Positions 2,904 through 32,000 of a stretch of DNA of 32,000 nt are shown here, piece after piece. How positions within the stretch are numbered: position 1 is the stretch's first letter; every line of letters starts with the position of its first letter. A program made the position numbers and the translations under genes. The stretch comes from Acinetobacter wanghuae (GTDB lineage Bacteria > Pseudomonadota > Gammaproteobacteria > Pseudomonadales > Moraxellaceae): NCBI RefSeq assembly GCF_009557235.1, contig NZ_CP045650.1, positions 1,320,001 through 1,352,000 on the forward strand, in the 5' to 3' direction. Below the pieces are notes generated by a model, which had not been told where the DNA came from, made no database searches, and saw only the letters and a program-made list of their open reading frames with translations.

Positions 2904-4241
2904 TTAACCGATTTGAATTTCTGAAGGTGGATGTTTAAGTCGACTTCTTTTTGGTGTTGCAATGAAATAAGCAAGGGTTAAAGGACCTAATCTGCCGGCA
3001 AACATCAGTAACATGAGAATAAATAAACTCGCGGGTTGCAGCTCTTCAGTTACGCCACGGGATAAGCCGACAGTACAAGCAGCAGACACTGCTTCAAACA
3101 GTAAATCCAAAAATTCTAAATCAGGCTCTAGCACCAATAAGCTAAAGAAACCAATCATGACCAATCCTGCGGTAATACATACTACAGACAATGCTTTAAA
3201 TGCAGTTTGCTTAGGGATCGAGTGTTTAAAGAGGCGAGTTTCATCTTCACGTCTTAAAAAGCTAATCACACTTAAAATTACGATAATAAATGTGCCGACT
3301 TTAATGCCGCCTGCAGTACTTAACGACCCACCGCCAATAAACATCAAGCACATGGTGACTAAAGTGGAGGCATTGGTCAGCTGATCCATAGGAACACTAT
3401 AGAATCCAGATGAACGTGGCACGGTCGCATGGAACCATGCATTTACCGCCTGATCACCCAAGCTCATGAGACCGAGCGTTTGCGGATTTGATGCTTCTAA
3501 TAGCCAAATGGTAATAAAAGCAAAAAGATTCAATCCACAGATGGTGGTGATAATCAGCTTGCTATTGGTGCTGAGTTTTTTCCAACGTTTATGGCGTTTG
3601 ACATCCATCAGAACCAAAAAGCCCACACCGCCAATGATGTACAGCATACTAATGGTAAAGGTAATGAAATACTGACCCGAGAAGCTCATTAAACTATTGG
3701 GAAATAATGAGAACCCGCCATTATTAAACGCGGAAATACTATAAAACGCAGCATAGAAAAAGGCTTGGTTAAAATTATAGTCTTGCATCCACGCGATGGT
3801 TAGAATAATCGTACCGATCGCTTCAAAAAAGAGTGAATACAGGAAAACTGCTTTAATGGTATAGGTCACTTTTTTAAGACTGGTTTGCCCAATGGATTCT
3901 TGCGCCATCACTTGTTGCTTTAAACCGAGCTTTGGCGCAAGGCTCATCACCGCCAAAATAGCGAAAGTCATAAAACCCAAACCGCCACATTGCAACAGCA
4001 GCATAATGACCACTTTTCCAAAAACGGTATAGGCTTCACCAATGTTCACTACAGAAAGCCCCGTGATGGTGACAGCAGAAGTGGCAGTGAAAATGGATTG
4101 TAGCCATGTGACATCATTATGATGGGCAAAAGGCAGCATGAGTAAAGCAGAGCCAATCACGATTAAAATAAAAAAGCCCAGTGCTAATAAACTTGGTGGG
4201 CTGAGATTAATCGTTCGATTTTTTTCAATGATCTTTTTCAT
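2904..4241 (-). CDS. ktrB: TrkH/KtrB-family K+ uptake membrane subunit
   Basis: 445 aa and polytopic. It has repeated glycine-containing pore-loop motifs (TITGLSV, NNGGFSLF, GGGSLSTAGGIKV) typical of the TrkH/KtrB family. ATGA start/stop overlap with upstream ktrA. Confidence 0.85.
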   Translation of the reverse strand: MKKIIEKNRTINLSPPSLLALGFFILIVIGSALLMLPFAHHNDVTWLQSIFTATSAVTITGLSVVNIGEAYTVFGKVVIMLLLQCGGLGFMTFAILAVMSLAPKLGLKQQVMAQESIGQTSLKKVTYTIKAVFLYSLFFEAIGTIILTIAWMQDYNFNQAFFYAAFYSISAFNNGGFSLFPNSLMSFSGQYFITFTISMLYIIGGVGFLVLMDVKRHKRWKKLSTNSKLIITTICGLNLFAFITIWLLEASNPQTLGLMSLGDQAVNAWFHATVPRSSGFYSVPMDQLTNASTLVTMCLMFIGGGSLSTAGGIKVGTFIIVILSVISFLRREDETRLFKHSIPKQTAFKALSVVCITAGLVMIGFFSLLVLEPDLEFLDLLFEAVSAACTVGLSRGVTEELQPASLFILMLLMFAGRLGPLTLAYFIATPKRSRLKHPPSEIQIG

Positions 4242-23182: not shown

Positions 23183-24547
23183 TTAGGCTTTCGATTCATC
23201 GGTTTCTAATTCTTTAAGCAAATGATTTTCCAAATAATGGATATCCATTGCTTGTTCGCAGAAGTTTTCATCGCGTAGGATTAAATCTTTATGCAAAGGA
23301 ATGTTGGTTTTAATTCCCGTTAATATGATTTCATCCAAGGCTTGCTTCATACGTGCAATTGAGGTTTCACGGTCTTTACCATGCGCAATCAATTTAGCAA
23401 TCATCGAATCATAATAGGGTGGAATGCTATAACCTGGATAGATATGTGAATCTAAACGGATACCTGCACCACCTGGGGCATAGAAGGATTCAATTTTGCC
23501 AGGACAAGGCATAAATGTTGAAGGGTCTTCAGCATTAATACGGCATTCCAACGCATGACCTTTTAAAATCACATCTTCTTGCTGAATATTAAGCCCTAAA
23601 CCTGCAGCAATACGAAGCTGTTGTTCAATAATATCGACACCTGTCACCATTTCAGTTACAGGATGTTCCACTTGAACACGGGTATTCATTTCAATAAAGA
23701 AGAATTCACCTTCTTCAAATAAAAATTCAAACGTACCCGCACCGCGGTATTGCATCATTTTACAAGCATTCACACAGGCTTCTAAAATATCGGCACGTGC
23801 TTGTTCAGGTAAATTTGGTGCAGGCGCTTCTTCAAGCACTTTTTGATGACGGCGCTGTAAGGAACAATCGCGATCATAAAGATGAATCGCGTGACCATTA
23901 CCGTCCGCTAAAATTTGCACTTCCACATGACGCGGTTTTTGTAAGAAACGCTCCATATAGACCGTGTCATCACCAAACCACATTTCTGCATCGCGCTGTG
24001 CTGCTTGTACAGATTCTAATAATGTATCGAAGCGTTCAACAATACGCATACCACGACCACCACCACCGGATGCGGCTTTGACGATCAATGGGAAACCAAT
24101 TTGTTTGGCTTCAGCAATGGCATTGTTGGTGGTCACGGCATGAGCAGAGCCGGGTACAGTCGGTACGCCTGCTTTACGCATTGCGGTAATGGCAGAGACT
24201 TTATTGCCCATTAAACGAATATGTTCAGGGCGTGGACCAATAAAGATAAAACCTGAATTTTCTACAATTTCAGCGAATTCAGCATTTTCAGACAAGAAAC
24301 CATAACCGGGATGGATCGCATCCGCACCGGTAATTTCAGCTGCTGTAATAATGGCAGGAATATTTAAATAGCTGTCACTGCTTGCACCCGGACCAATACA
24401 AACCGCTTCGTCGCAGAAGCGTAAATGCATCAGGTCTTTGTCTGCATCTGAGTAGACCCCAACGGTCTTAATACCCAAAGTTTTACAAGCACGGGTAATG
24501 CGTAACGCAATCTCACCCCGGTTTGCAATTAAAACTTTTTGCAACAT
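23183..24547 (-). CDS. accC: Acetyl-CoA carboxylase, biotin carboxylase subunit
   Basis: 454 aa with the N-terminus [16 protein letters not shown], an ATP-grasp region (GGGGRGMR) and [13 protein letters not shown]. Confidence 0.95.
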
Positions 24548-24568
24548 TGTGTTTAATCCCCGAAGTGC

Positions 24569-24985
24569 TTAAGCGCGGTAGCGGAAAAGTGGTTGACCAA
24601 ATTGAATCACTTCGCCATTTTTCACTAAAATTTCTTCAACAACGCCACTTTGTGTTGCTTCAATCGGGTTCATGATTTTCATTGCTTCGATAATACCTAA
24701 AGTATCACCCGCAGAAACCGTTTGACCGACTTTAATAAAGGTTGCTTCACCCGGACTTGGTGCCGCATAGAACACCCCGACCATTGGTGATTTTTCGACA
24801 GCACCACGTGGTGATTTTGCTGCGGGTACATCAGCCGCAGGCGCAGGCATTGCAGGAACAGCTGCTGCAACCACTGGATTACGACGAGTTAAAGCAATAG
24901 ATTGATCGCCTTCTTTAACTTCGATCGCCTGTAAGTCAGATTCAATCATCAAGTCGATGAGTTTCTTGATTTTACGGATATCCAT
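24569..24985 (-). CDS. accB: Acetyl-CoA carboxylase, biotin carboxyl carrier protein
   Basis: 138 aa with an Ala/Pro-rich linker and the biotinylation motif IEAMKIMN. It lies directly upstream of accC. Confidence 0.95.
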   Translation of the reverse strand: MDIRKIKKLIDLMIESDLQAIEVKEGDQSIALTRRNPVVAAAVPAMPAPAADVPAAKSPRGAVEKSPMVGVFYAAPSPGEATFIKVGQTVSAGDTLGIIEAMKIMNPIEATQSGVVEEILVKNGEVIQFGQPLFRYRA

Positions 24986-25001
24986 GAGACAGTATTCCTA
25001 A

Positions 25002-25457
25002 TTAAGATTGCTTAGAAGATTGAATTTTTTCAATGATATAATCGAGTGCTGCGGCATAGCCTTTAGCACCTAAACCACAAATGATGCCGATGGCTTTATC
25101 AGATAAATATGAGTGGTGACGGAATGCTTCGCGGGCATGTACATTGGATAAATGCACTTCAATAAATGGAATAGCCACGCCAAGTAAGGCATCACGCACT
25201 GCGACTGAGGTATGGGTCAGTGCGGCAGGATTAATAATGATGTATTGGACACCATCTTTTTGTGCTTGATGAATACGATCGACAACTGCACCTTCCCAAT
25301 TGCTTTGGAAAGTATCGAGTTCAAGAGCAGCATTTTGAGCTTGAGCAATAAGTTGCTGATTGATATCCGCTAGGGTGAGATGACCATAAACTTCTGGTTC
25401 GCGCTGTCCTAGCAGATTTAAATTCGGTCCGTGAATGACCAAAATGGTCGAACTCAT
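25002..25457 (-). CDS. aroQ: Type II 3-dehydroquinate dehydratase
   Basis: 151 aa with [21 protein letters not shown] and the (H)[11 protein letters not shown] motif. The aroQ-accB-accC order is typical. Confidence 0.95.
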
Positions 25458-26259
25458 TCAGCATGCTCCAATTTGAAAGTTGTCGTATAAGTTTGCAAGA
25501 TGTCTGCAAAGTTCCACTATTATTGCATAAAATTCTAGATTTTTATGAAAAATTCCGAGAATTGGCTAAATTTCAACATGCAAAATAGTGGCTATATAAT
25601 GAAAAAGTTGCAACGATTTAGCAATGTTAAAAAATGACATTTCTTATAATTCTGTTTATTTTTGTATTGTAAACCCGATTGGCAAAAACTATGCATACAC
25701 ATTGTGTAACAGCTCGGTATAGCTGATGGCTTGTCATTATTTTTAAATGATGCTTTTGAGCATAACATCTGGATATAGATTCGAATAGTCATGAGCGATA
25801 TATGGAATGTTTTGGTTAAAGTTAATTTAAGAATCATCTTTAGTCGAGATGTTGAATAGCTGCTCAAGCTTTAAAAAAATAATAATTACAACAAGATAAG
25901 TTTTGATACTCAGACTTAAAATTTAAAATAACGCTGATTTTTACTCATTTGAATATTGTTTGGAGAGAGTGAAGAAATGCTGGCAACGTATCTCATTCAC
26001 TAAATAGTTTGTATAAATATTGCTCTAAAATATTATTGTGAATGAATGACTTAAAAATAGAATCAATAACTTCGCATTGACGAATCTGTTCATTATTTTT
26101 GAATATTAAAGCGGTTTAACGCCGTTGAATCTTATTTTGGAGTGGCAGAATCGTATTGGATATTCGCTTTAATCATTTTTTGCATGTGTGAAGGCTATAT
26201 CAGCATAGAAAAAAGGTTTTATAATGCCGAGCACGATTTACCTAGTGCTGAAGATGACA

Positions 26260-26730
26260 ATGACGCCTGCATGTAAACTTTTAACCTCGAAAAAAATAGA
26301 ATTCACCGTCCATGAATATACCCATGATGCCAATGCACAGAGCTTTGGTTTAGAAGCCGCAGAAAAATTAGGGCTTCGGGTTGAAGAAGTGTTTAAAACA
26401 CTGTTAGTGACCGATGATAAACAGTATTTTGTTGCGATTTTGCCTGTACATCACCAATTAAGTTTAAAAAAAGTTGCACAGGCATTGGGCTGTAAAAAAC
26501 TACAAATGGCAGATCCTAAACAGGCTGAACGCTTAACGGGTTATTTGGTCGGTGGTATTAGTCCGATTGGGCAAAAGAAACGCTTAAAAACCCTTATTGA
26601 TGCGTCTGCACAAACCCTTGCTAAGATGTATGTCAGTGGCGGGAAGCGTGGTCTTGATATTGGTTTAGCACCTCATGATTTATGCCAAGTCTTAGATGCT
26701 CAATTTGCAGATGTGCTTGATGAGAAGTAA
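26260..26730 (+). CDS. ybaK: Cys-tRNA(Pro)/Cys-tRNA(Cys) deacylase YbaK
   Basis: Colinear with E. coli YbaK from MTPA.KLL onward ([13 protein letters not shown]). The start codon is uncertain: in-frame ATGs at 26224, 26254 and 26260. Alignment with YbaK favours 26260. Confidence 0.8.
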
Positions 26731-26839
26731 ACAAATATCTTTATCTGAGTCGTAAAAGAAACAGATCAGCCGATAGACTTGATGCGGTTTTATGATTTTA
26801 GGTATCAAGTTACTCTGCCGAACGCTGATCTAAGACAAT

Positions 26840-26868
26840 AAAAAAGCCCATTAAGTTGGGCCTTTTTT
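26840..26868. terminator. Bidirectional Rho-independent terminator (ybaK / tusE)
   Basis: AAAAAA-GCCCA / loop TTAAGT / TGGGC-C-TTTTTT. Confidence 0.8.
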
Positions 26869-26879
26869 ATCATTCATAC

Positions 26880-27191
26880 TTATAGACAGTTGGGTGGCTT
26901 TGGAATACCTGCCAAACGACTCAAATGACGTGCGACTAATCCAGTATTAAACTTTTCTTGCAATACTGCGTTATTAATCTCGCTGCTCACGGTTTTCATC
27001 AAGTATTTAATTAAAGGACGTGTGGCAGGAGAGTGCCCAAATTGATGGTAGAACTGTCGAACAGCATTCAAGACTTCAAAGTGCCAAGGGCTTAAATCAA
27101 GTTCTAAGCTGTTGGCGAGTACTTGTGCAACATCTTCATTCCAAATCGTGTAATCGACTAAATGACCATCTTGGTCTAATTCTAAATTCAT
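26880..27191 (-). CDS. tusE: Sulfurtransferase TusE / DsrC family
   Basis: 103 aa. The DsrC/TusE-type C-terminal tail ends in PKPPNCL, with the conserved penultimate Cys. It is the last gene of the tusDCB cluster. Confidence 0.8.
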   Translation of the reverse strand: MNLELDQDGHLVDYTIWNEDVAQVLANSLELDLSPWHFEVLNAVRQFYHQFGHSPATRPLIKYLMKTVSSEINNAVLQEKFNTGLVARHLSRLAGIPKPPNCL

Positions 27192-27201
27192 GAGGTACTC
27201 T

Positions 27202-27495
27202 TTACTTCATTGAAACACAGCGACTAAATGCCAAGCAAAGCGCTGCAAAATCGGCATAGTCGATGATTTTAACATTGGATGCATAAGGCTGCGTTAAAAG
27301 CTCGGCATCATTTTCTAAGACATAAACGGCAGTTAAAGACTGTATAAAGTCATGAGTTATGCCAAGTACAGCTTCACCTAAAATAACCACTTGATCGTCA
27401 GGGGCGTGTATTTGTGCTAATTGCTTAATGCTTTGCGCCGTAGCGACATAATTGGATTGAATTAAATAGAGCGTTGCAGGCGTCATCGTATTCAC
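27202..27495 (-). CDS. tusB: tRNA 2-thiouridine synthesis sulfur relay protein TusB / DsrH
   Basis: 97 aa in the DsrH position of the cluster. GTG start with an AAGGAAG SD 7 nt upstream. Confidence 0.75.
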   Translation of the reverse strand: MNTMTPATLYLIQSNYVATAQSIKQLAQIHAPDDQVVILGEAVLGITHDFIQSLTAVYVLENDAELLTQPYASNVKIIDYADFAALCLAFSRCVSMK

Positions 27496-27507
27496 TTGTT
27501 ATCTTCC

Positions 27508-27858
27508 TTACCAATACAGCACATGGTCAAAGCCACGAATAAATTCAGGACTGAGTTCAATAAAGGTAAGTTCTTGTTCAGATTGTTGTACAAAGGCAGA
27601 GTTTTGATTTTTTTGTTCCACTAAAATGGGCGTTAAATCATAGAACTCAAAACTATCTACCATATTCGATGCCAATTTGAATGCATGTTTGACTTGATCA
27701 AATTGTAAATCTGAACGGAGTAAGCTGAGTGCTGCGCCTTGTAATAATATTTTTACTTCCGCACCGAAGGTTGCTAATACCATGGTCGCAGATAAGCTTT
27801 CGTGCACTTGCAGGCTAGATAAATTTGCCTGAGTCAGAATAACGAGTACAGATTTCAC
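27508..27858 (-). CDS. tusC: Sulfur relay protein TusC / DsrF
   Basis: 116 aa of DsrE/F-fold size, positioned between tusD and tusB. GTG start. Confidence 0.75.
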   Translation of the reverse strand: MKSVLVILTQANLSSLQVHESLSATMVLATFGAEVKILLQGAALSLLRSDLQFDQVKHAFKLASNMVDSFEFYDLTPILVEQKNQNSAFVQQSEQELTFIELSPEFIRGFDHVLYW

Positions 27859-27901
27859 ACAATATACCTTTTAAAAGCAACAATTCACGAAAACATAATC
27901 A

Positions 27902-28270
27902 TTAGAATTGAATAAGACGTTGTGCAGATTGAACAGCATCCGCAAGTTCACCTAAACCAACCAATTCAAATTTTTCAGCTAAGTTATGCTGTTGAATATT
28001 GTGACGTTGAGCATTTTCCTGATCTGTGATTCCACGTGCGAGTGCTGCACTGACACATACAGGTAAACGGATATTTAAAGCTTGCCATGCATGCGTTAAA
28101 TGACGTTGGTCGTCTGCAACCCATTGCAATGTATTCGCAACCGAAACGCCGTCTTGATAAAAGAACACGCGAAAAGGTTCCTGTTTATCATGCAGCGCTT
28201 GGGCAAGACCTAAGGCATGCCAAGCATGAATGGACGTAGGTGCAGAGGTGATCAGAATTAAGGTGCTCAT
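27902..28270 (-). CDS. tusD: Sulfurtransferase TusD / DsrE
   Basis: 122 aa and colinear with E. coli TusD, including the conserved Cys in PVCVSAALARG and the C-terminal ...IQF. Confidence 0.85.
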   Translation of the reverse strand: MSTLILITSAPTSIHAWHALGLAQALHDKQEPFRVFFYQDGVSVANTLQWVADDQRHLTHAWQALNIRLPVCVSAALARGITDQENAQRHNIQQHNLAEKFELVGLGELADAVQSAQRLIQF

Positions 28271-28521
28271 CGAATTTCACTACAGGCTGGATCAACACAT
28301 GTTGATTCTGGGCGACATAATAAGAAGGTAGTATACAATGATTTTAGGCGACATATTTTCTATTTAAGACATAATATAAAGTTGTTTTTTGAAATAAACT
28401 AATTAAAACAATAATTTAAAATACTACATTTAATGATATCAACACTAAACTCTAAATTTATCTGCACAAAATAGTTTCAATTTTTTCTAATTTTTCAGCA
28501 TTACAAGATAGAATAGAAAAC

Positions 28522-28543
28522 AATCTGCACCAAATCTGCACCA
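28522..28543 (+). repeat. Exact tandem 11-bp direct repeat AATCTGCACCA x2 abutting the integrase start codon
   Basis: Copies at 28522-28532 and 28533-28543 are identical. A third partial copy, ATCTGCAC, lies at 28460-28467. Confidence 0.9.
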
Positions 28544-28547
28544 AGAA

Positions 28548-29585
28548 ATGAAACTACCAAAACCGATTCAGCGCGGTGAAAGCTGGCGCATCATTGTGAC
28601 CTTTGAAAAAAAGCGCTATTCAATCACAAGGGACTCTGCAAAAGAGTGCGAGCTTTGGGCAATAGATAAATTATCCGAACTTCGAACCAATAAAAAAGCC
28701 ATTGCACAAGGTGAAAAGCCCGCATACCCATTTAGGGAATTGTGCGCTAAATATTATCAAGAGCATGGTCGCCATATGAAATCTGCACGGACCATCAATT
28801 TTAAAATTAAAAATATTGACCGTATTGCACCAAATTTAGCAGACAAATCGATTTATGACTTTAAGCCTACTGACATTGCTGAATGGCGAAATAATCGGAA
28901 AAAAGAAGTAAAAGTAGCAACACTTAGAAATGAGCATGCAATTTATTCAGCAGTATTCACTTATGCAATGAAAGAGCTATTTCTAATTGAATCAAACGTG
29001 TGGCACTCAGTCACCATGCCGGGTAAGGAAAAATCACGAAGTCAGCGTATTACTGATGAAGATCAAGCAAAAATGCTTGAAGCACTAAGTTGGGATGGTA
29101 CGACAACACCTGAAACCTCACGACATTATGTGGCTTGGGCATTTTTATTTGCTTTAGAAACCGCAATGCGACAAGGCGAAATTCTTGCAATGAAAAAGCA
29201 GGATATTAAAGATGGTTTTGTACATTTACCGATGACAAAAAATGGTGAATCTCGGAACGTGCCACTATCTAAAGAAGCCAAGCGACTTTTATCACTATTA
29301 CCAAAAACCAATAAGCAACTTGTGTCGCTTGATAAAGATAGATGCTGTGCAACATGGGTGCGTGCTAAGAAACGAGCAGGGCTGCCGCACATCAATTTCC
29401 ATGATTCGCGGCATGAAGCCATTACACGTATGGTGAAGGTCAGAAAATTACCGGTTGAAGTCTTGGCTAAGATCACAGGGCATAAAACCATTTCTATGCT
29501 TGTGAATACTTATTACAATCCAGATGCTCAAGACTTGGTTGAAATGTTTAATGACAGTGAGAATAGTGAGAATGTGGAACTTTAA
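28548..29585 (+). CDS. int: Tyrosine site-specific recombinase (phage integrase family)
   Basis: 345 aa. The catalytic residues appear in canonical order: R (ETAMRQGE), K (TKNGESRNVPL), HxxR (FHDSRHEA), H (ITGHKT) and Y (NTYYNP). Confidence 0.9.
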   Translation: MKLPKPIQRGESWRIIVTFEKKRYSITRDSAKECELWAIDKLSELRTNKKAIAQGEKPAYPFRELCAKYYQEHGRHMKSARTINFKIKNIDRIAPNLADKSIYDFKPTDIAEWRNNRKKEVKVATLRNEHAIYSAVFTYAMKELFLIESNVWHSVTMPGKEKSRSQRITDEDQAKMLEALSWDGTTTPETSRHYVAWAFLFALETAMRQGEILAMKKQDIKDGFVHLPMTKNGESRNVPLSKEAKRLLSLLPKTNKQLVSLDKDRCCATWVRAKKRAGLPHINFHDSRHEAITRMVKVRKLPVEVLAKITGHKTISMLVNTYYNPDAQDLVEMFNDSENSENVEL

Positions 29586-29775
29586 TGTTCCACGCTATTG
29601 TTAATTTATAGCAAATGCTATATTTTTGAATCAGGGCAAAGAGTAGATCTTGTCTTTTGTTGTATCTAAATTAAGGAAGTGTGAAATGTACACCGTCACT
29701 GTTTTTCGACAATGTTAAGCCTTAGTTTTACGTTGCTAAGTTCTGTTGATTTAAGTGTTTTAAGTGAGGTGGATT

Positions 29776-30291
29776 ATGAATAACTATAAAGCATTAGATA
29801 TTGCTAACTATATTATTTGTTATGCAAATAATGAGCAAAAAAAATTATCAAATCACTCTCTGACCCCATTGAAGCTTCAAAAAATTCTGTATTATGTATC
29901 GACAGAGTATTTTAAAAAATATGGAAAGCGCTTATTTAGTGAAGATTTTCAAAAGTGGCAATATGGGCCAGTAGTTAAAGATGTCTATCATGAATTTAAG
30001 TCTTCAGGTCTTCATCATATAGCTAGACCAAAAGCAAAATTAGAAATATCTGAAACTGGTAGTATTTTTCGCAAAGAATTTGATATAAATACTTTGAATA
30101 GTGATAGTGAATTCGTGATGATTGCGGAAAATGTTATAAAAACTTATATGCCTTGGAAAGCTTTTGATCTTGTTGAGCGAACTCATGATGAAATAGCATG
30201 GAAAAAATTCGAATGCGATATCATGAAGGGTGTTGAATTAACTTATTCTGACTCTGAATTATTATCTGCTAAATCGATTAATGATAAATAA
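29776..30291 (+). CDS. DUF4065 / Panacea-domain protein (PanA / SocA / GepA-like putative antitoxin)
   Basis: ALDIANYII...LTPLKLQKILYYVSTEYFKKYGKRLFSEDFQKWQYGPVVKDVYHEFK matches my recollection of the DUF4065 consensus (LKLQKLLYY...F.AW.YGPV...Y..F). GAGG SD 6 nt before the ATG at 29776; the track's start at 29764 is a GTG inside the SD. Confidence 0.75.
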   Translation: MNNYKALDIANYIICYANNEQKKLSNHSLTPLKLQKILYYVSTEYFKKYGKRLFSEDFQKWQYGPVVKDVYHEFKSSGLHHIARPKAKLEISETGSIFRKEFDINTLNSDSEFVMIAENVIKTYMPWKAFDLVERTHDEIAWKKFECDIMKGVELTYSDSELLSAKSINDK

Positions 30292-31103
30292 TGACTAACC
30301 ATGCTCAAGAAACCTTTATTAAAAGGCATTTGAATCCTGAGAATTTTAATCAAAAGGAGATTGTAGAGGAAACAGCTTTATTATTTAGCATTCTCATCGA
30401 TGATTATGTGAAAACAGCTGCTAAAGAAACCTTCTACAATCTACCTTATAAGGATATTTCTGTTCTAGTTTTTGATGATAAATCTAACGATATTAAGACA
30501 GATTCATTTAATGGATTTATAACTACAGTAACCGAAGAAATCAAAAATACTTTTAATTCATATGAATTAACAACAGAATTGGAACATGCGACTGCATGCT
30601 ATGAAAAATTTGCTTCACATATTGAATTAGCATTAATTCAGAAGCGATTCATGCTTGATACGGCAAAAGAAGCAAATAGAGTAGCAGGTGTAGCAAGAAA
30701 AGATGCTGATTTTGCAAAAAAACAAGCTAAGAAAGCTAAAGAAATGTCTAATGCAATGGTTACCAACTTTGTAACTATTCTCGGTGTATTTGCCACCATT
30801 ATTATTACCGTCTTCGGCGGTATGCAAATAATTAGTGCGACAACGAAGCTATTGCAAACTGATTTAAATCTCGCAACTTTATTTTTAGTTTTATCGTTTA
30901 TATCACTTTTAATCATATTAATTTTATGGATGCTTTTCTCATTTATAATTAATCTTAAAAAGGATGTTAATAGTAACTCTGCCCTTATTACAGCCATAAC
31001 TGTTTTATCAATAACTATTATGTTATCTGCTGCTTACATAATTTTTTCAGGAAAAGATTTCTCACAAACAAGCGCAAAAGTGCTTGTTAAAGATGATAAA
31101 TAA
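30291..31103 (+). CDS. Hypothetical protein: soluble N-terminal domain, basic coiled-coil segment and 3 TM helices (putative toxin/effector partner)
   Basis: The ATG overlaps the upstream TAA by 1 nt (TAATG). Residues 1-135 are soluble with no motif I recognise. Residues 136-150 are RKDADFAKKQAKKAK. Hydrophobic helices lie at about 156-182, 193-220 and 231-252. Very AT-rich. Confidence 0.7.
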   Translation: MTNHAQETFIKRHLNPENFNQKEIVEETALLFSILIDDYVKTAAKETFYNLPYKDISVLVFDDKSNDIKTDSFNGFITTVTEEIKNTFNSYELTTELEHATACYEKFASHIELALIQKRFMLDTAKEANRVAGVARKDADFAKKQAKKAKEMSNAMVTNFVTILGVFATIIITVFGGMQIISATTKLLQTDLNLATLFLVLSFISLLIILILWMLFSFIINLKKDVNSNSALITAITVLSITIMLSAAYIIFSGKDFSQTSAKVLVKDDK

Positions 31104-31106
31104 AAA

Positions 31107-31126
31107 CGAGAGCTAATTCGCTCTCG
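31107..31126. terminator. Hairpin between the convergent cargo module and the phage-like operon
   Basis: CGAGAGC / loop TAATTC / GCTCTCG. On the minus strand it is followed by a U-rich tract. The TAG stop of the minus-strand ORF lies at the stem-loop junction. Confidence 0.6.
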
Positions 31127-31400
31127 GTCTTCCTTTTCTGATTTTGGTAGTGAGTATTTCGTGAGCAAGGCGTGGATTATATAAACCTTTGCCTTGCGAT
31201 CCTTGGTTAATTGAAATCAACTTTTCACGTATTGTAGGTACAGACAAATTGTATTTTTGAGCAAGATGTGCAGCAGTCACCAACTGCACATCAACCTCTT
31301 TTAATTCCTTTACAACTGCACCACCGCAGATTTCTTGCCCCAACATTACTTGAGGCGGTTTATCTGATTCAACTGTAATGGTGTAGCGAAAAGCACCCAT
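31113..31400 (-). CDS. Putative HTH DNA-binding protein (prophage regulator / excisionase-like)
   Basis: 95 aa from the ATG at 31400, with a perfect AAGGAGG SD 7 nt upstream. The track's start at 31403 is a TTG. HTH-like segment VTAAHLAQKYNLSVPTIREKL and a basic C-terminal tail. Confidence 0.6.
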   Translation of the reverse strand: MGAFRYTITVESDKPPQVMLGQEICGGAVVKELKEVDVQLVTAAHLAQKYNLSVPTIREKLISINQGSQGKGLYNPRLAHEILTTKIRKGRPRAN

Positions 31401-31555
31401 CAAGACACCTCCTTTAAACTCTCGACAACACTTTCAGGCAACCCAGGCACATCATTAAATGCTTTAGCAAATCCACCATCTGCGATGAATTGATCCATGA
31501 GATTGACTTGCTTATCAATTTCCAATTCTTCGACTTCGATTGTTTGTTCAGTCAT
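31400..31555 (-). CDS. Small acidic hypothetical protein (51 aa), absent from the ORF track
   Basis: MTEQTIEVEELEIDKQVNLMDQFIADGGFAKAFNDVPGLPESVVESLKEVS. GGGAG SD 7 nt upstream. Its ATG overlaps the upstream stop (ATGACTGA), and its TGA overlaps the downstream ATG (TGATG). Confidence 0.6.
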   Translation of the reverse strand: MTEQTIEVEELEIDKQVNLMDQFIADGGFAKAFNDVPGLPESVVESLKEVS

Positions 31556-31988
31556 GGCTTGGCTCCCGTGCTTCGATCATTGCTTTTTTACTGGTAAGGG
31601 ATTTATCCCAAGAGCCTGTAAAGTCGAAAGATGGTGCTTCTTCCGCAAAATAATCACCTTTCCAACAGAAGGCACAGATATCCATATCCTTAACAGGACG
31701 GATGCTTGACCACCAGTACTTATTTGAGTGACCATCTTTCAGCCAATATTTAGCCCATCTAGGGGCTTGCAACCAATCCACATTTGGATTGCCAATCATG
31801 TTTCGCTTTTCAACCAAAACAAACCCTTTAGGCACCGCATTCGCTTTGGCTGCTTGCCACATTTCCCAACCGCTATGCGTTGTTAAGCAATAAAAGCGAA
31901 AGTTTGTTGGGGTTGTCTCACCATCAGTATTCCAACCTTTAGATTGAGCAACTTCTTTAAAGGCATTTAATTCTTTTTGAATATCCAT
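31548..31988 (-). CDS. Phage-like hypothetical protein (Trp-rich, 146 aa)
   Basis: The ATG at 31988 is preceded by a GAGGTGG SD; the track's start at 31991 is a GTG. It is translationally coupled to the downstream small ORF. No recognised domain. Confidence 0.6.
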   Translation of the reverse strand: MDIQKELNAFKEVAQSKGWNTDGETTPTNFRFYCLTTHSGWEMWQAAKANAVPKGFVLVEKRNMIGNPNVDWLQAPRWAKYWLKDGHSNKYWWSSIRPVKDMDICAFCWKGDYFAEEAPSFDFTGSWDKSLTSKKAMIEAREPSHD

Positions 31989-32000
31989 CACACCACCTCG

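Follow-up and report, generated by a model that had tools for sequence, protein, structure and literature searches.

We conclude that two overlapping plus-strand genes of the Acinetobacter wanghuae chromosome, located towards the end of the 32,000-nucleotide (nt) stretch analysed here (the window), probably constitute a PanA-PanT type II toxin-antitoxin (TA) module of PanT cluster T4, carried as an AT-rich moron in a prophage-like element. Gene 1 (open reading frame (ORF) 29764/29776-30291) would encode the antitoxin and gene 2 (30291-31103) the toxin. The partners of the Panacea domain were surveyed by Kurata et al. 2022 (PNAS 119:e2102212119, PMC8832971), whose work includes three validated membrane-targeting PanTs. 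The PanT of Helicobacter sp. 13S00482-2 (validated pair WP_095295401.1 / WP_095295403.1) has C-terminal transmembrane (TM) helices and an N-terminal coiled-coil-like region, and is placed in cluster T4 of their Dataset S1 (PMC8832971). T4 is a large cluster with members in Firmicutes, Epsilonproteobacteria, Fusobacteria, Spirochaetes and Acinetobacter; it holds four Acinetobacter pairs (A. larvae, A. pittii, A. puyangensis and A. wuhouensis), lists Streptococcus phage P9 gp51/gp52 (gp52 recorded as "Toxic") and phiNIH1.1 p52/p53 (NP_438165.1), and has the gene order 'A|T' (PMC8832971, Dataset S1). Judged by its sequence, gene 2 is a homologue of the T4-cluster PanT proteins, and we assign the locus as a further member of the described PanA-PanT family, not as a new toxin family. 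The original prediction, made from the sequence without database searches, had proposed that the N-terminal domain of gene 2 paired with a PanA may be an undescribed toxin or defence-effector family; this claim is not supported, because gene 2 matches PanT cluster T4 (PMC8832971), an already characterised PanT family.

The assignment of gene 2 rests on the following observations. In BLASTP comparisons, it matches P9 gp52 (E 4e-10), phiNIH1.1 p53 (E 8e-10), the T4 member from the prophage of Helicobacter rodentium ATCC 700285 (E 6e-14) and the homologue in Moraxella phage Mcat28 (E 2e-21). A profile built without epsilonproteobacterial sequences aligned by hhalign with the H. rodentium protein at a probability of 98.5% (E 2.8e-15). 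The three fetched records are the pairs of Dataset S1, since their PanA/PanT overlaps (P9: -10 nt, phiNIH1.1: -13 nt, H. rodentium ATCC 700285 prophage: -20 nt) equal the values listed there. Invariant motifs are common to members from Gammaproteobacteria, Epsilonproteobacteria and Firmicutes, and such position-specific invariant residues argue against a purely compositional match of coiled coil and TM segments. Both the architecture and the A|T order of T4 are found at the A. wanghuae locus, with the TM segments following residue 157 of gene 2 and PanA immediately upstream. The family is large: a HMMER search of 1.84 billion representatives recovered 2,535 at E ≤ 1e-3 and 1,430 at E ≤ 1e-10, counted at 50% identity.

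Gene 2 is 100% identical to the A. wanghuae hypothetical protein in its database record (see the table) and otherwise at most 88% identical to any sequence in the databases searched. It matches no Pfam, NCBIfam or PADLOC family at threshold, and matches two PHROGs of unknown function (phrog_38724: 3.5e-29, phrog_5763: 1e-25). A Pfam scan of 102 diverse members likewise returned no consistent family, only scattered sub-threshold coiled-coil or membrane models. DUF334 (PF03904), the NCBI label of phiNIH1.1 p53, was considered and rejected: the A. wanghuae protein has no match to it, and phiNIH1.1 p53 (13.9 bits) and P9 gp52 (14.9 bits) both score under its 30-bit cut-off.

Several points weigh against our reading. 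The link to the validated Helicobacter sp. PanT runs via the clustering of Kurata et al. and the members from H. rodentium and Campylobacter concisus. None of 19 homologue clusters looked up by accession against Dataset S1 has a T4 accession, a search that began with the C. concisus protein recovered H. pylori, H. muridarum and H. rodentium (phage collection) but not Helicobacter sp. 13S00482-2, and none of the T4 accessions that we looked for is present in the NetFlax supplements. Gene 2 is 19-30% identical to members outside Moraxellaceae, and the coiled-coil/TM part of the alignment inflates the scores. The evidence for toxicity comes from relatives outside Acinetobacter, and the outcomes for T4 in Escherichia coli are mixed: one pair is a validated TA, P9 gp52 is toxic and not rescued by its PanA, and the Clostridioides difficile member is not toxic (PMC8832971). 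A sigma-70 scan of the 190-bp gap 5' of the pair found no promoter for it, in that there was no convincing match and the matches were not above those of shuffled sequence. Lastly, the oligomeric channel, the topology and the PanA binding site that we propose below are inferred only, and the monomer model has a pTM of 0.49.

Turning to gene 1, the DUF4065 motifs LKLQKILYY and F.KWQYGPVV.DVYHEFK, by which the original prediction had recognised it, are present, and PF13274 (SocA_Panacea) matches residues 34-143 over the whole of the profile (1-113 of 113) with E 8e-21 and 75.5 bits, against a cut-off of 25.7. We class it as a stand-alone Panacea (PanA) protein, since there is no extra N-terminal domain beside the Panacea domain. 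It matches phrog_1281 (E 7.9e-39), and its closest phage relatives are PanAs partnered with T4 toxins (43% identity to the PanA of Moraxella phage Mcat28 and 40.5% to phiNIH1.1 p52). Gene 1 shares its Panacea domain with SocA, the founding Panacea protein, from the type VI TA system SocA-SocB of Caulobacter crescentus. To judge by the profile score it is not a SocA functional orthologue, as it reaches 72.8 bits (E 2.6e-20) with the NCBIfam equivalog SocA_antitoxin (NF047745), far under the 190-bit cut-off. The toxin that SocA serves as ClpXP adaptor is soluble and binds the replication clamp; neutralisation by PanAs generally requires neither ClpXP nor Lon. No PADLOC-DB 2.0 model matched gene 1.

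The two genes are a conserved, co-inherited and co-diverging unit that stays adjacent across distant phyla. A scan of one genome per species with a peptide pattern taken from gene 2 only gave 21 loci in Acinetobacter, Moraxella, Psychrobacter, Campylobacter, Streptococcus, lactobacilli, Pediococcus and Virgibacillus, and a PanA-like ORF lies immediately upstream on the same strand in every one (21/21). A PanA is likewise directly upstream in six phage or prophage records (Mcat28, Javan179, P9, phiNIH1.1, SpT152 and the H. rodentium prophage). Within Acinetobacter, where co-occurrence had been suggested earlier as a check, PF13274 is called upstream of the gene 2 homologue in all contigs examined. 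The genes of related loci mostly overlap by 1-22 nt or are separated by very short gaps, common values being -4, -8 and -13 nt. The normalised similarity of the PanAs tracks that of the PanTs, with a Mantel r of 0.82 that none of 5000 permutations reached.

The position of the pair in its element is more variable. We found the flanks to be as the original prediction described, a tyrosine integrase on one side and, on the other, convergent phage-like minus-strand ORFs that match PHROGs (phrog_17994: 1e-17, phrog_7138: 6e-6). The proposed integrase-proximal slot holds in the window but not as a general rule: in other Acinetobacter prophages, the pair lies within a block of tail genes (L030) or after a lysozyme gene at the prophage end (L032), and a similar integrase is rare within 4 kb of related loci. 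We regard the integrase adjacency as incidental, since the pair sits elsewhere in these other prophages. The AT-rich character of the module is borne out, its GC fraction being 0.300 compared with 0.404 for the rest of the window, 0.396 for the integrase and 0.419 for the downstream phage-like genes; the earlier hand counts of GC (18/60, 10/60 and 26/60) are exact. With a GC content below that of the core, the integrase and the phage-like neighbours, the pair looks like a separately acquired AT-rich moron inside an integrase-bearing prophage-like element.

The arrangement of the two ORFs, on the same strand with a TAATG stop/start overlap of 1 nt, is as first described. This overlap, together with the lack of a separate Shine-Dalgarno sequence for gene 2, suggests that translation of gene 2 is coupled to that of gene 1. 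The sequence GAGGTGG (29766-29772) is 4-10 nt before ATG 29776, which is likely to be the start of gene 1 (giving 171 residues); GTG 29764 would be merely the first possible start codon. The closing hairpin that had been noted after gene 2 is present, with a 7-bp stem, and is common to the pair and the convergent phage-like operon. With this hairpin at one end and another at the integrase stop at the other, the pair looks like its own transcription unit. The coordinates of these and other features are collected in the table.

Table 1. Features of the panA-panT locus and its surroundings, in window coordinates
Feature	Position	Strand	Basis
Tyrosine integrase, context outside the module	28548..29585	+	PF00589 5.2e-20, PF24624 Int_N 2.6e-8; GC 0.396
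Terminator-like hairpin straddling the integrase stop, 8-bp stem	29573..29594	+	Consensus scan, consensus match only
Upstream non-coding region of the pair, contains Shine-Dalgarno-like GAGGTGG	29595..29775	+	Read directly
panA, predicted Panacea/DUF4065 antitoxin, 171 aa, no additional N-terminal domain	29776..30291	+	PF13274
TAATG stop/start overlap, 1 nt	30289..30293	+	Read from sequence
panT, T4-cluster membrane toxin by homology, 270 aa	30291..31103	+	GFH30_06255 / WP_153371410.1
PanT N-terminal compact helical domain with one beta-hairpin (aa 1-91), conserved LPY53KDI motif	30291..30563	+	AlphaFold2 (AF2)
PanT stalk, soluble part (aa 94-156) of a continuous helix	30570..30758	+	AF2 full-length model
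TM1 (aa ~157-180), family signature TILGVF...FGG	30759..30830	+	Hydropathy peak 2.27
TM2 (aa ~194-219)	30870..30947	+	Hydropathy peak 3.04; model helix 194-223
TM3 (aa ~231-252), poorly conserved	30981..31046	+	Hydropathy peak 2.16; model helix 229-254, lower pLDDT
GC-rich closing hairpin, 7-bp stem, 5 GC pairs, terminator-like on both strands	31107..31126		Consensus scan

Gene 2 does contain the Lys-rich helix (RKDADFAKKQAKKAK) and, after it, the three hydrophobic segments by hydropathy that had been described from the translation; the net charge over residues 120-155 is +4. The stalk begins with the motif K106-x3-H-x2-L113-A-x2-Q117-K and ends with the Lys-rich juxtamembrane stretch. Residues that are invariant or nearly so across the alignments are P52-Y53, K106, L113, Q117, I163-L164-G165-x-F167 and F175-G176-G177. 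TM1 is the best-conserved part of the family, with an ILGxF-like motif in 99/102 diverse members, and the region beyond TM2 is variable. The number of TM segments across the family was not used as evidence, as the crude hydropathy measure over-splits long segments. In many Firmicutes proteins, TM2 and TM3 are joined by a Cys-rich CxxxC...H loop, which the Acinetobacter protein does not have, and Campylobacter and Helicobacter members have lost the FGG of TM1 and show VAN or VAG instead.

The full-length AF2 model (22-sequence alignment, pLDDT 79, with the monomer pTM given above) consists of a compact N-domain, one unbroken helix of ~95 residues (94-188) that runs into TM1, and two further TM helices. 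The N-terminal 135 residues modelled alone with 52 sequences (window 30291-30695) gave a pLDDT of 89.9 and a pTM of 0.83. Fold searches found no significant match in the PDB for the full-length model (best E 0.55) or for the N-domain model (best E 0.53, TM-score <0.5), and the only match of the full-length model in BFVD is one uncharacterised siphovirus protein (E 9e-3), which is not usable as evidence. The top weak PDB matches of the N-domain are recurrently of the globin fold and include the non-haem sensor domains RsbR-N and pXO1-118; at TM-scores of 0.39-0.47 and a root-mean-square deviation of ~7 Å, these are a lead only and are not usable as evidence.

The known behaviour of relatives guides our reading of function. 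Expression of the Helicobacter sp. T4 toxin halts transcription, translation and replication together and strongly depolarises the inner membrane without uptake of SYTOX Green, and P9 gp52 is toxic in the assay of Kurata et al. 2022 (PMC8832971). PanA neutralises independently of ClpXP and Lon, and complex formation is seen for several PanA-PanT pairs (PMC8832971); for stand-alone PanAs, the Panacea domain is itself the neutralising surface and acts by direct protein-protein binding (Ernits et al. 2023). Because relatives of gene 2 are experimentally toxic and membrane-acting, the pair is, in our analysis, best read as a PanA that neutralises a membrane-acting toxin. The original prediction had reached the same reading, and it gains support from these relatives and from the co-inheritance of the two genes. 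We suggest that PanT would insert into the inner membrane through TM1-3, leaving the N-domain and the stalk of ~60 residues in the cytoplasm, a topology that agrees with the positive-inside rule, given the Lys-rich juxtamembrane segment. PanT may then oligomerise via the glycine-rich TM1 (ILGxF...FGG) to give a small ion-conducting path, by which the membrane potential would collapse. TM1 is the sole strongly conserved membrane segment and carries a small-residue motif, which suggests an oligomer with helix-helix packing and an ion leak as opposed to a large pore. PanA, co-translated from the same mRNA, would bind the cytoplasmic part of PanT and keep it inactive, and PanT would be released once PanA is lost or triggered. 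The payoff is most probably stabilisation of the element, or an abortive-infection or exclusion benefit to the lysogen.

Whether the pair has been selected for anti-phage defence is a claim about biological role that sits on top of the TA mechanism and is not an alternative to it. The prophage would carry the pair for the benefit of the lysogen, with PanA sensing infection and the released PanT depolarising the cell before the phage cycle completes. We hold this as a tentative possibility, somewhat on the doubtful side. It is consistent with the moron positions that the pair occupies (next to the integrase here, after the lysin and beside virulence morons in streptococcal phages, in the tail module or after lysozyme in Acinetobacter) and with a GC fraction (0.30) well under that of the surrounding element. 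Panacea has also been proposed as a sensor, and RosmerTA, a different membrane-depolarising TA, defends against phage (Ernits et al. 2023). However, an addiction or stabilisation module would be just as likely to reside in a prophage, neither protein matches a PADLOC model at threshold (the best for gene 2 is CorA-like, E 0.016), and the literature searched contained no phage-challenge results on a T4 pair. We think it unlikely that the T4 PanTs are a structurally new class of small oligomeric ion-channel effectors, with PanA as infection sensor and the pair as an uncatalogued abortive-infection or exclusion system; in such a class, the unmatched helical N-domain would gate a glycine-zipper TM1 pore through the long stalk helix.

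Gene 2 might, in its native host, encode a harmless membrane protein that acts together with its Panacea partner, perhaps in exclusion or as an anchor. The non-toxic C. difficile member already mentioned, the eight PanTs in all that were non-toxic in the study of Kurata et al. 2022 (PMC8832971) and the decayed copies at two loci (L012, split; L020, frameshifted) are in keeping with this. Two other T4 members are toxic, one with demonstrated depolarisation, and the antitoxin-first overlapping order, strict co-occurrence and co-divergence are the signature of a toxin that needs neutralisation; we therefore consider a benign role improbable. The PanT-like gene of Psychrobacter cibarius L012 (2735-3031, 3899-4471) is split by an insert of ~870 bp and that of Streptococcus sp. 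L020 (3535-4381) is frameshifted, both with the upstream PanA intact, and these look like decayed toxins with surviving antitoxins.

We also considered gene 2 as a distant member of the CorA/MIT cation channels, which would give it a cytoplasmic domain, a stalk into TM1, a G-M-N-like motif, and TM2 followed by a basic patch. The sub-threshold PADLOC match to CorA (E 0.016), a weak Pfam CorA match that spans almost the whole of the Mcat28 homologue (E 0.001), the stalk helix running into TM1 in the model and the resemblance of FGGMQ at the end of TM1 to the CorA motif YGMNF all point this way, as does one T4 entry labelled 'MIT_CorA-like' from CDD in Dataset S1 (PMC8832971). Against this, Foldseek ranks CorA structures 30-32 (probability 0.05, TM-score 0.13), a profile search of PDB sequences finds no CorA at E up to 10, and CorA is absent from the 25 Pfam families most often matched by the 102 members; the third motif residue varies among Q, N, D and S, and the epsilonproteobacterial members have lost FGG. 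We judge the CorA relationship very improbable. Membership of the CorA family itself (PF01544) was rejected, with no Pfam match on the A. wanghuae protein and 18.9 bits for the best family member against a cut-off of 27. Still less credible is a holin-like lysis-timing protein with gene 1 as antiholin or regulator, for although the pair is directly 3' of an endolysin or lysozyme gene in streptococcal phages and A. thermotolerans and 5/102 members have weak XhlA matches, it is far from any lysis gene in the window and in L030, SpT152 has its own annotated holin elsewhere, a protein of 270 residues with a 155-residue soluble domain does not resemble the known holins, the validated relative causes depolarisation but no permeabilisation, and the A. 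wanghuae protein matches no Pfam or PHROG holin family.

Returning to the PanA-PanT assignment, the A. wanghuae pair resembles the T4 pairs of Kurata et al. 2022 in its antitoxin-first order, its overlapping or abutting genes, its stand-alone Panacea antitoxin and its phage or prophage location. Gene 2 resembles the T4 toxins in that its soluble N-terminal part is followed by a coiled-coil stalk and, at the C-terminus, by TM helices, and in the motifs PY, K..H..LA..QK and ILGxF..FGG. Unlike many Firmicutes members, it lacks the Cys-rich CxxxC...H loop after TM2, and it differs from the listed T4 members in its species, in an accession outside the 2022 dataset and, for those beyond Moraxellaceae, in the low identity (19-30%) noted above. 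The PanTs of clusters T3 (E. coli STEC O31) and T12 (NetFlax node D11; Bartonella apis/choladocola) are similar in that they are neutralised by a stand-alone Panacea, have C-terminal TM helices and a charged N-terminal region, and depolarise. The pores of the T3 and T12 toxins are large enough to let SYTOX Green in, and in this they differ from the validated T4 toxin, which does not permeabilise the membrane while depolarising it; they are clustered apart from T4 (PMC8832971). Many of the predicted membrane-spanning PanTs are small peptides (PMC8832971). RexAB, the type III CRISPR effector Cam1, the RosmerTA toxins and other depolarising effectors of defence have the same outcome, loss of membrane potential via a small membrane protein on a mobile element, but their partners and triggers differ and we found no sequence or PADLOC similarity between them and the pair.

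Other loci of the family show further arrangements. In the streptococcal prophages (Javan179, P9 and phiNIH1.1), the pair has the endolysin gene on one side and known virulence morons (phospholipase A2, DNase, SpeL and paratox) on the other, and so shares its cargo region with toxin genes of medical interest. Staphylococcus phage SpT152 has an unannotated PanA-like ORF (L004:1571-2026) in a locus that runs across the record ends (L004:1571-2541, L002:10-795); after this ORF come first SpT152_068, with weak similarity to PanT (E 2e-9), and then SpT152_001, whose similarity is clear (E 1e-51), giving two toxin-like genes in tandem adjoining the integrase. Streptococcus sp. L013 has two PanA-like ORFs (1511-1993 and 3363-3824) within 2 kb, of which the second alone precedes a T4-like toxin.

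Around the A. wanghuae pair, the integrase gene starts 277 bp (28271-28547) after a block of small minus-strand ORFs (26880-28270), and the other end of the integrated element is beyond the window. No tRNA gene was found anywhere in the window, which indicates that the attachment site is not a tRNA. An Rfam scan of 24000-32000 gave no match at E up to 0.1, and a nucleotide search of 28400-32000 against phage genomes gave no match. We note an AT-rich gap of ~760 bp (window 25458-26223, GC 0.29-0.30), flanked by a minus-strand ORF of 151 residues (25002-25457) and a plus-strand ORF of 168 residues (26224-26730), which has no Rfam match (E up to 0.1) and no ORF of at least 100 residues, the longest being 91 residues (25592-25867, minus strand).

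The module is biologically ordinary, one more instance in a prophage of a published TA family. Its significance lies mainly in annotation: the usual label for GFH30_06255 and some 2,500 family representatives is "hypothetical", with an occasional "DUF334", "alanine-zipper" or "coiled-coil", and the family has no Pfam, NCBIfam or PADLOC model; its members could now be given the name PanT (T4-type), as membrane toxins that pair with PanA.

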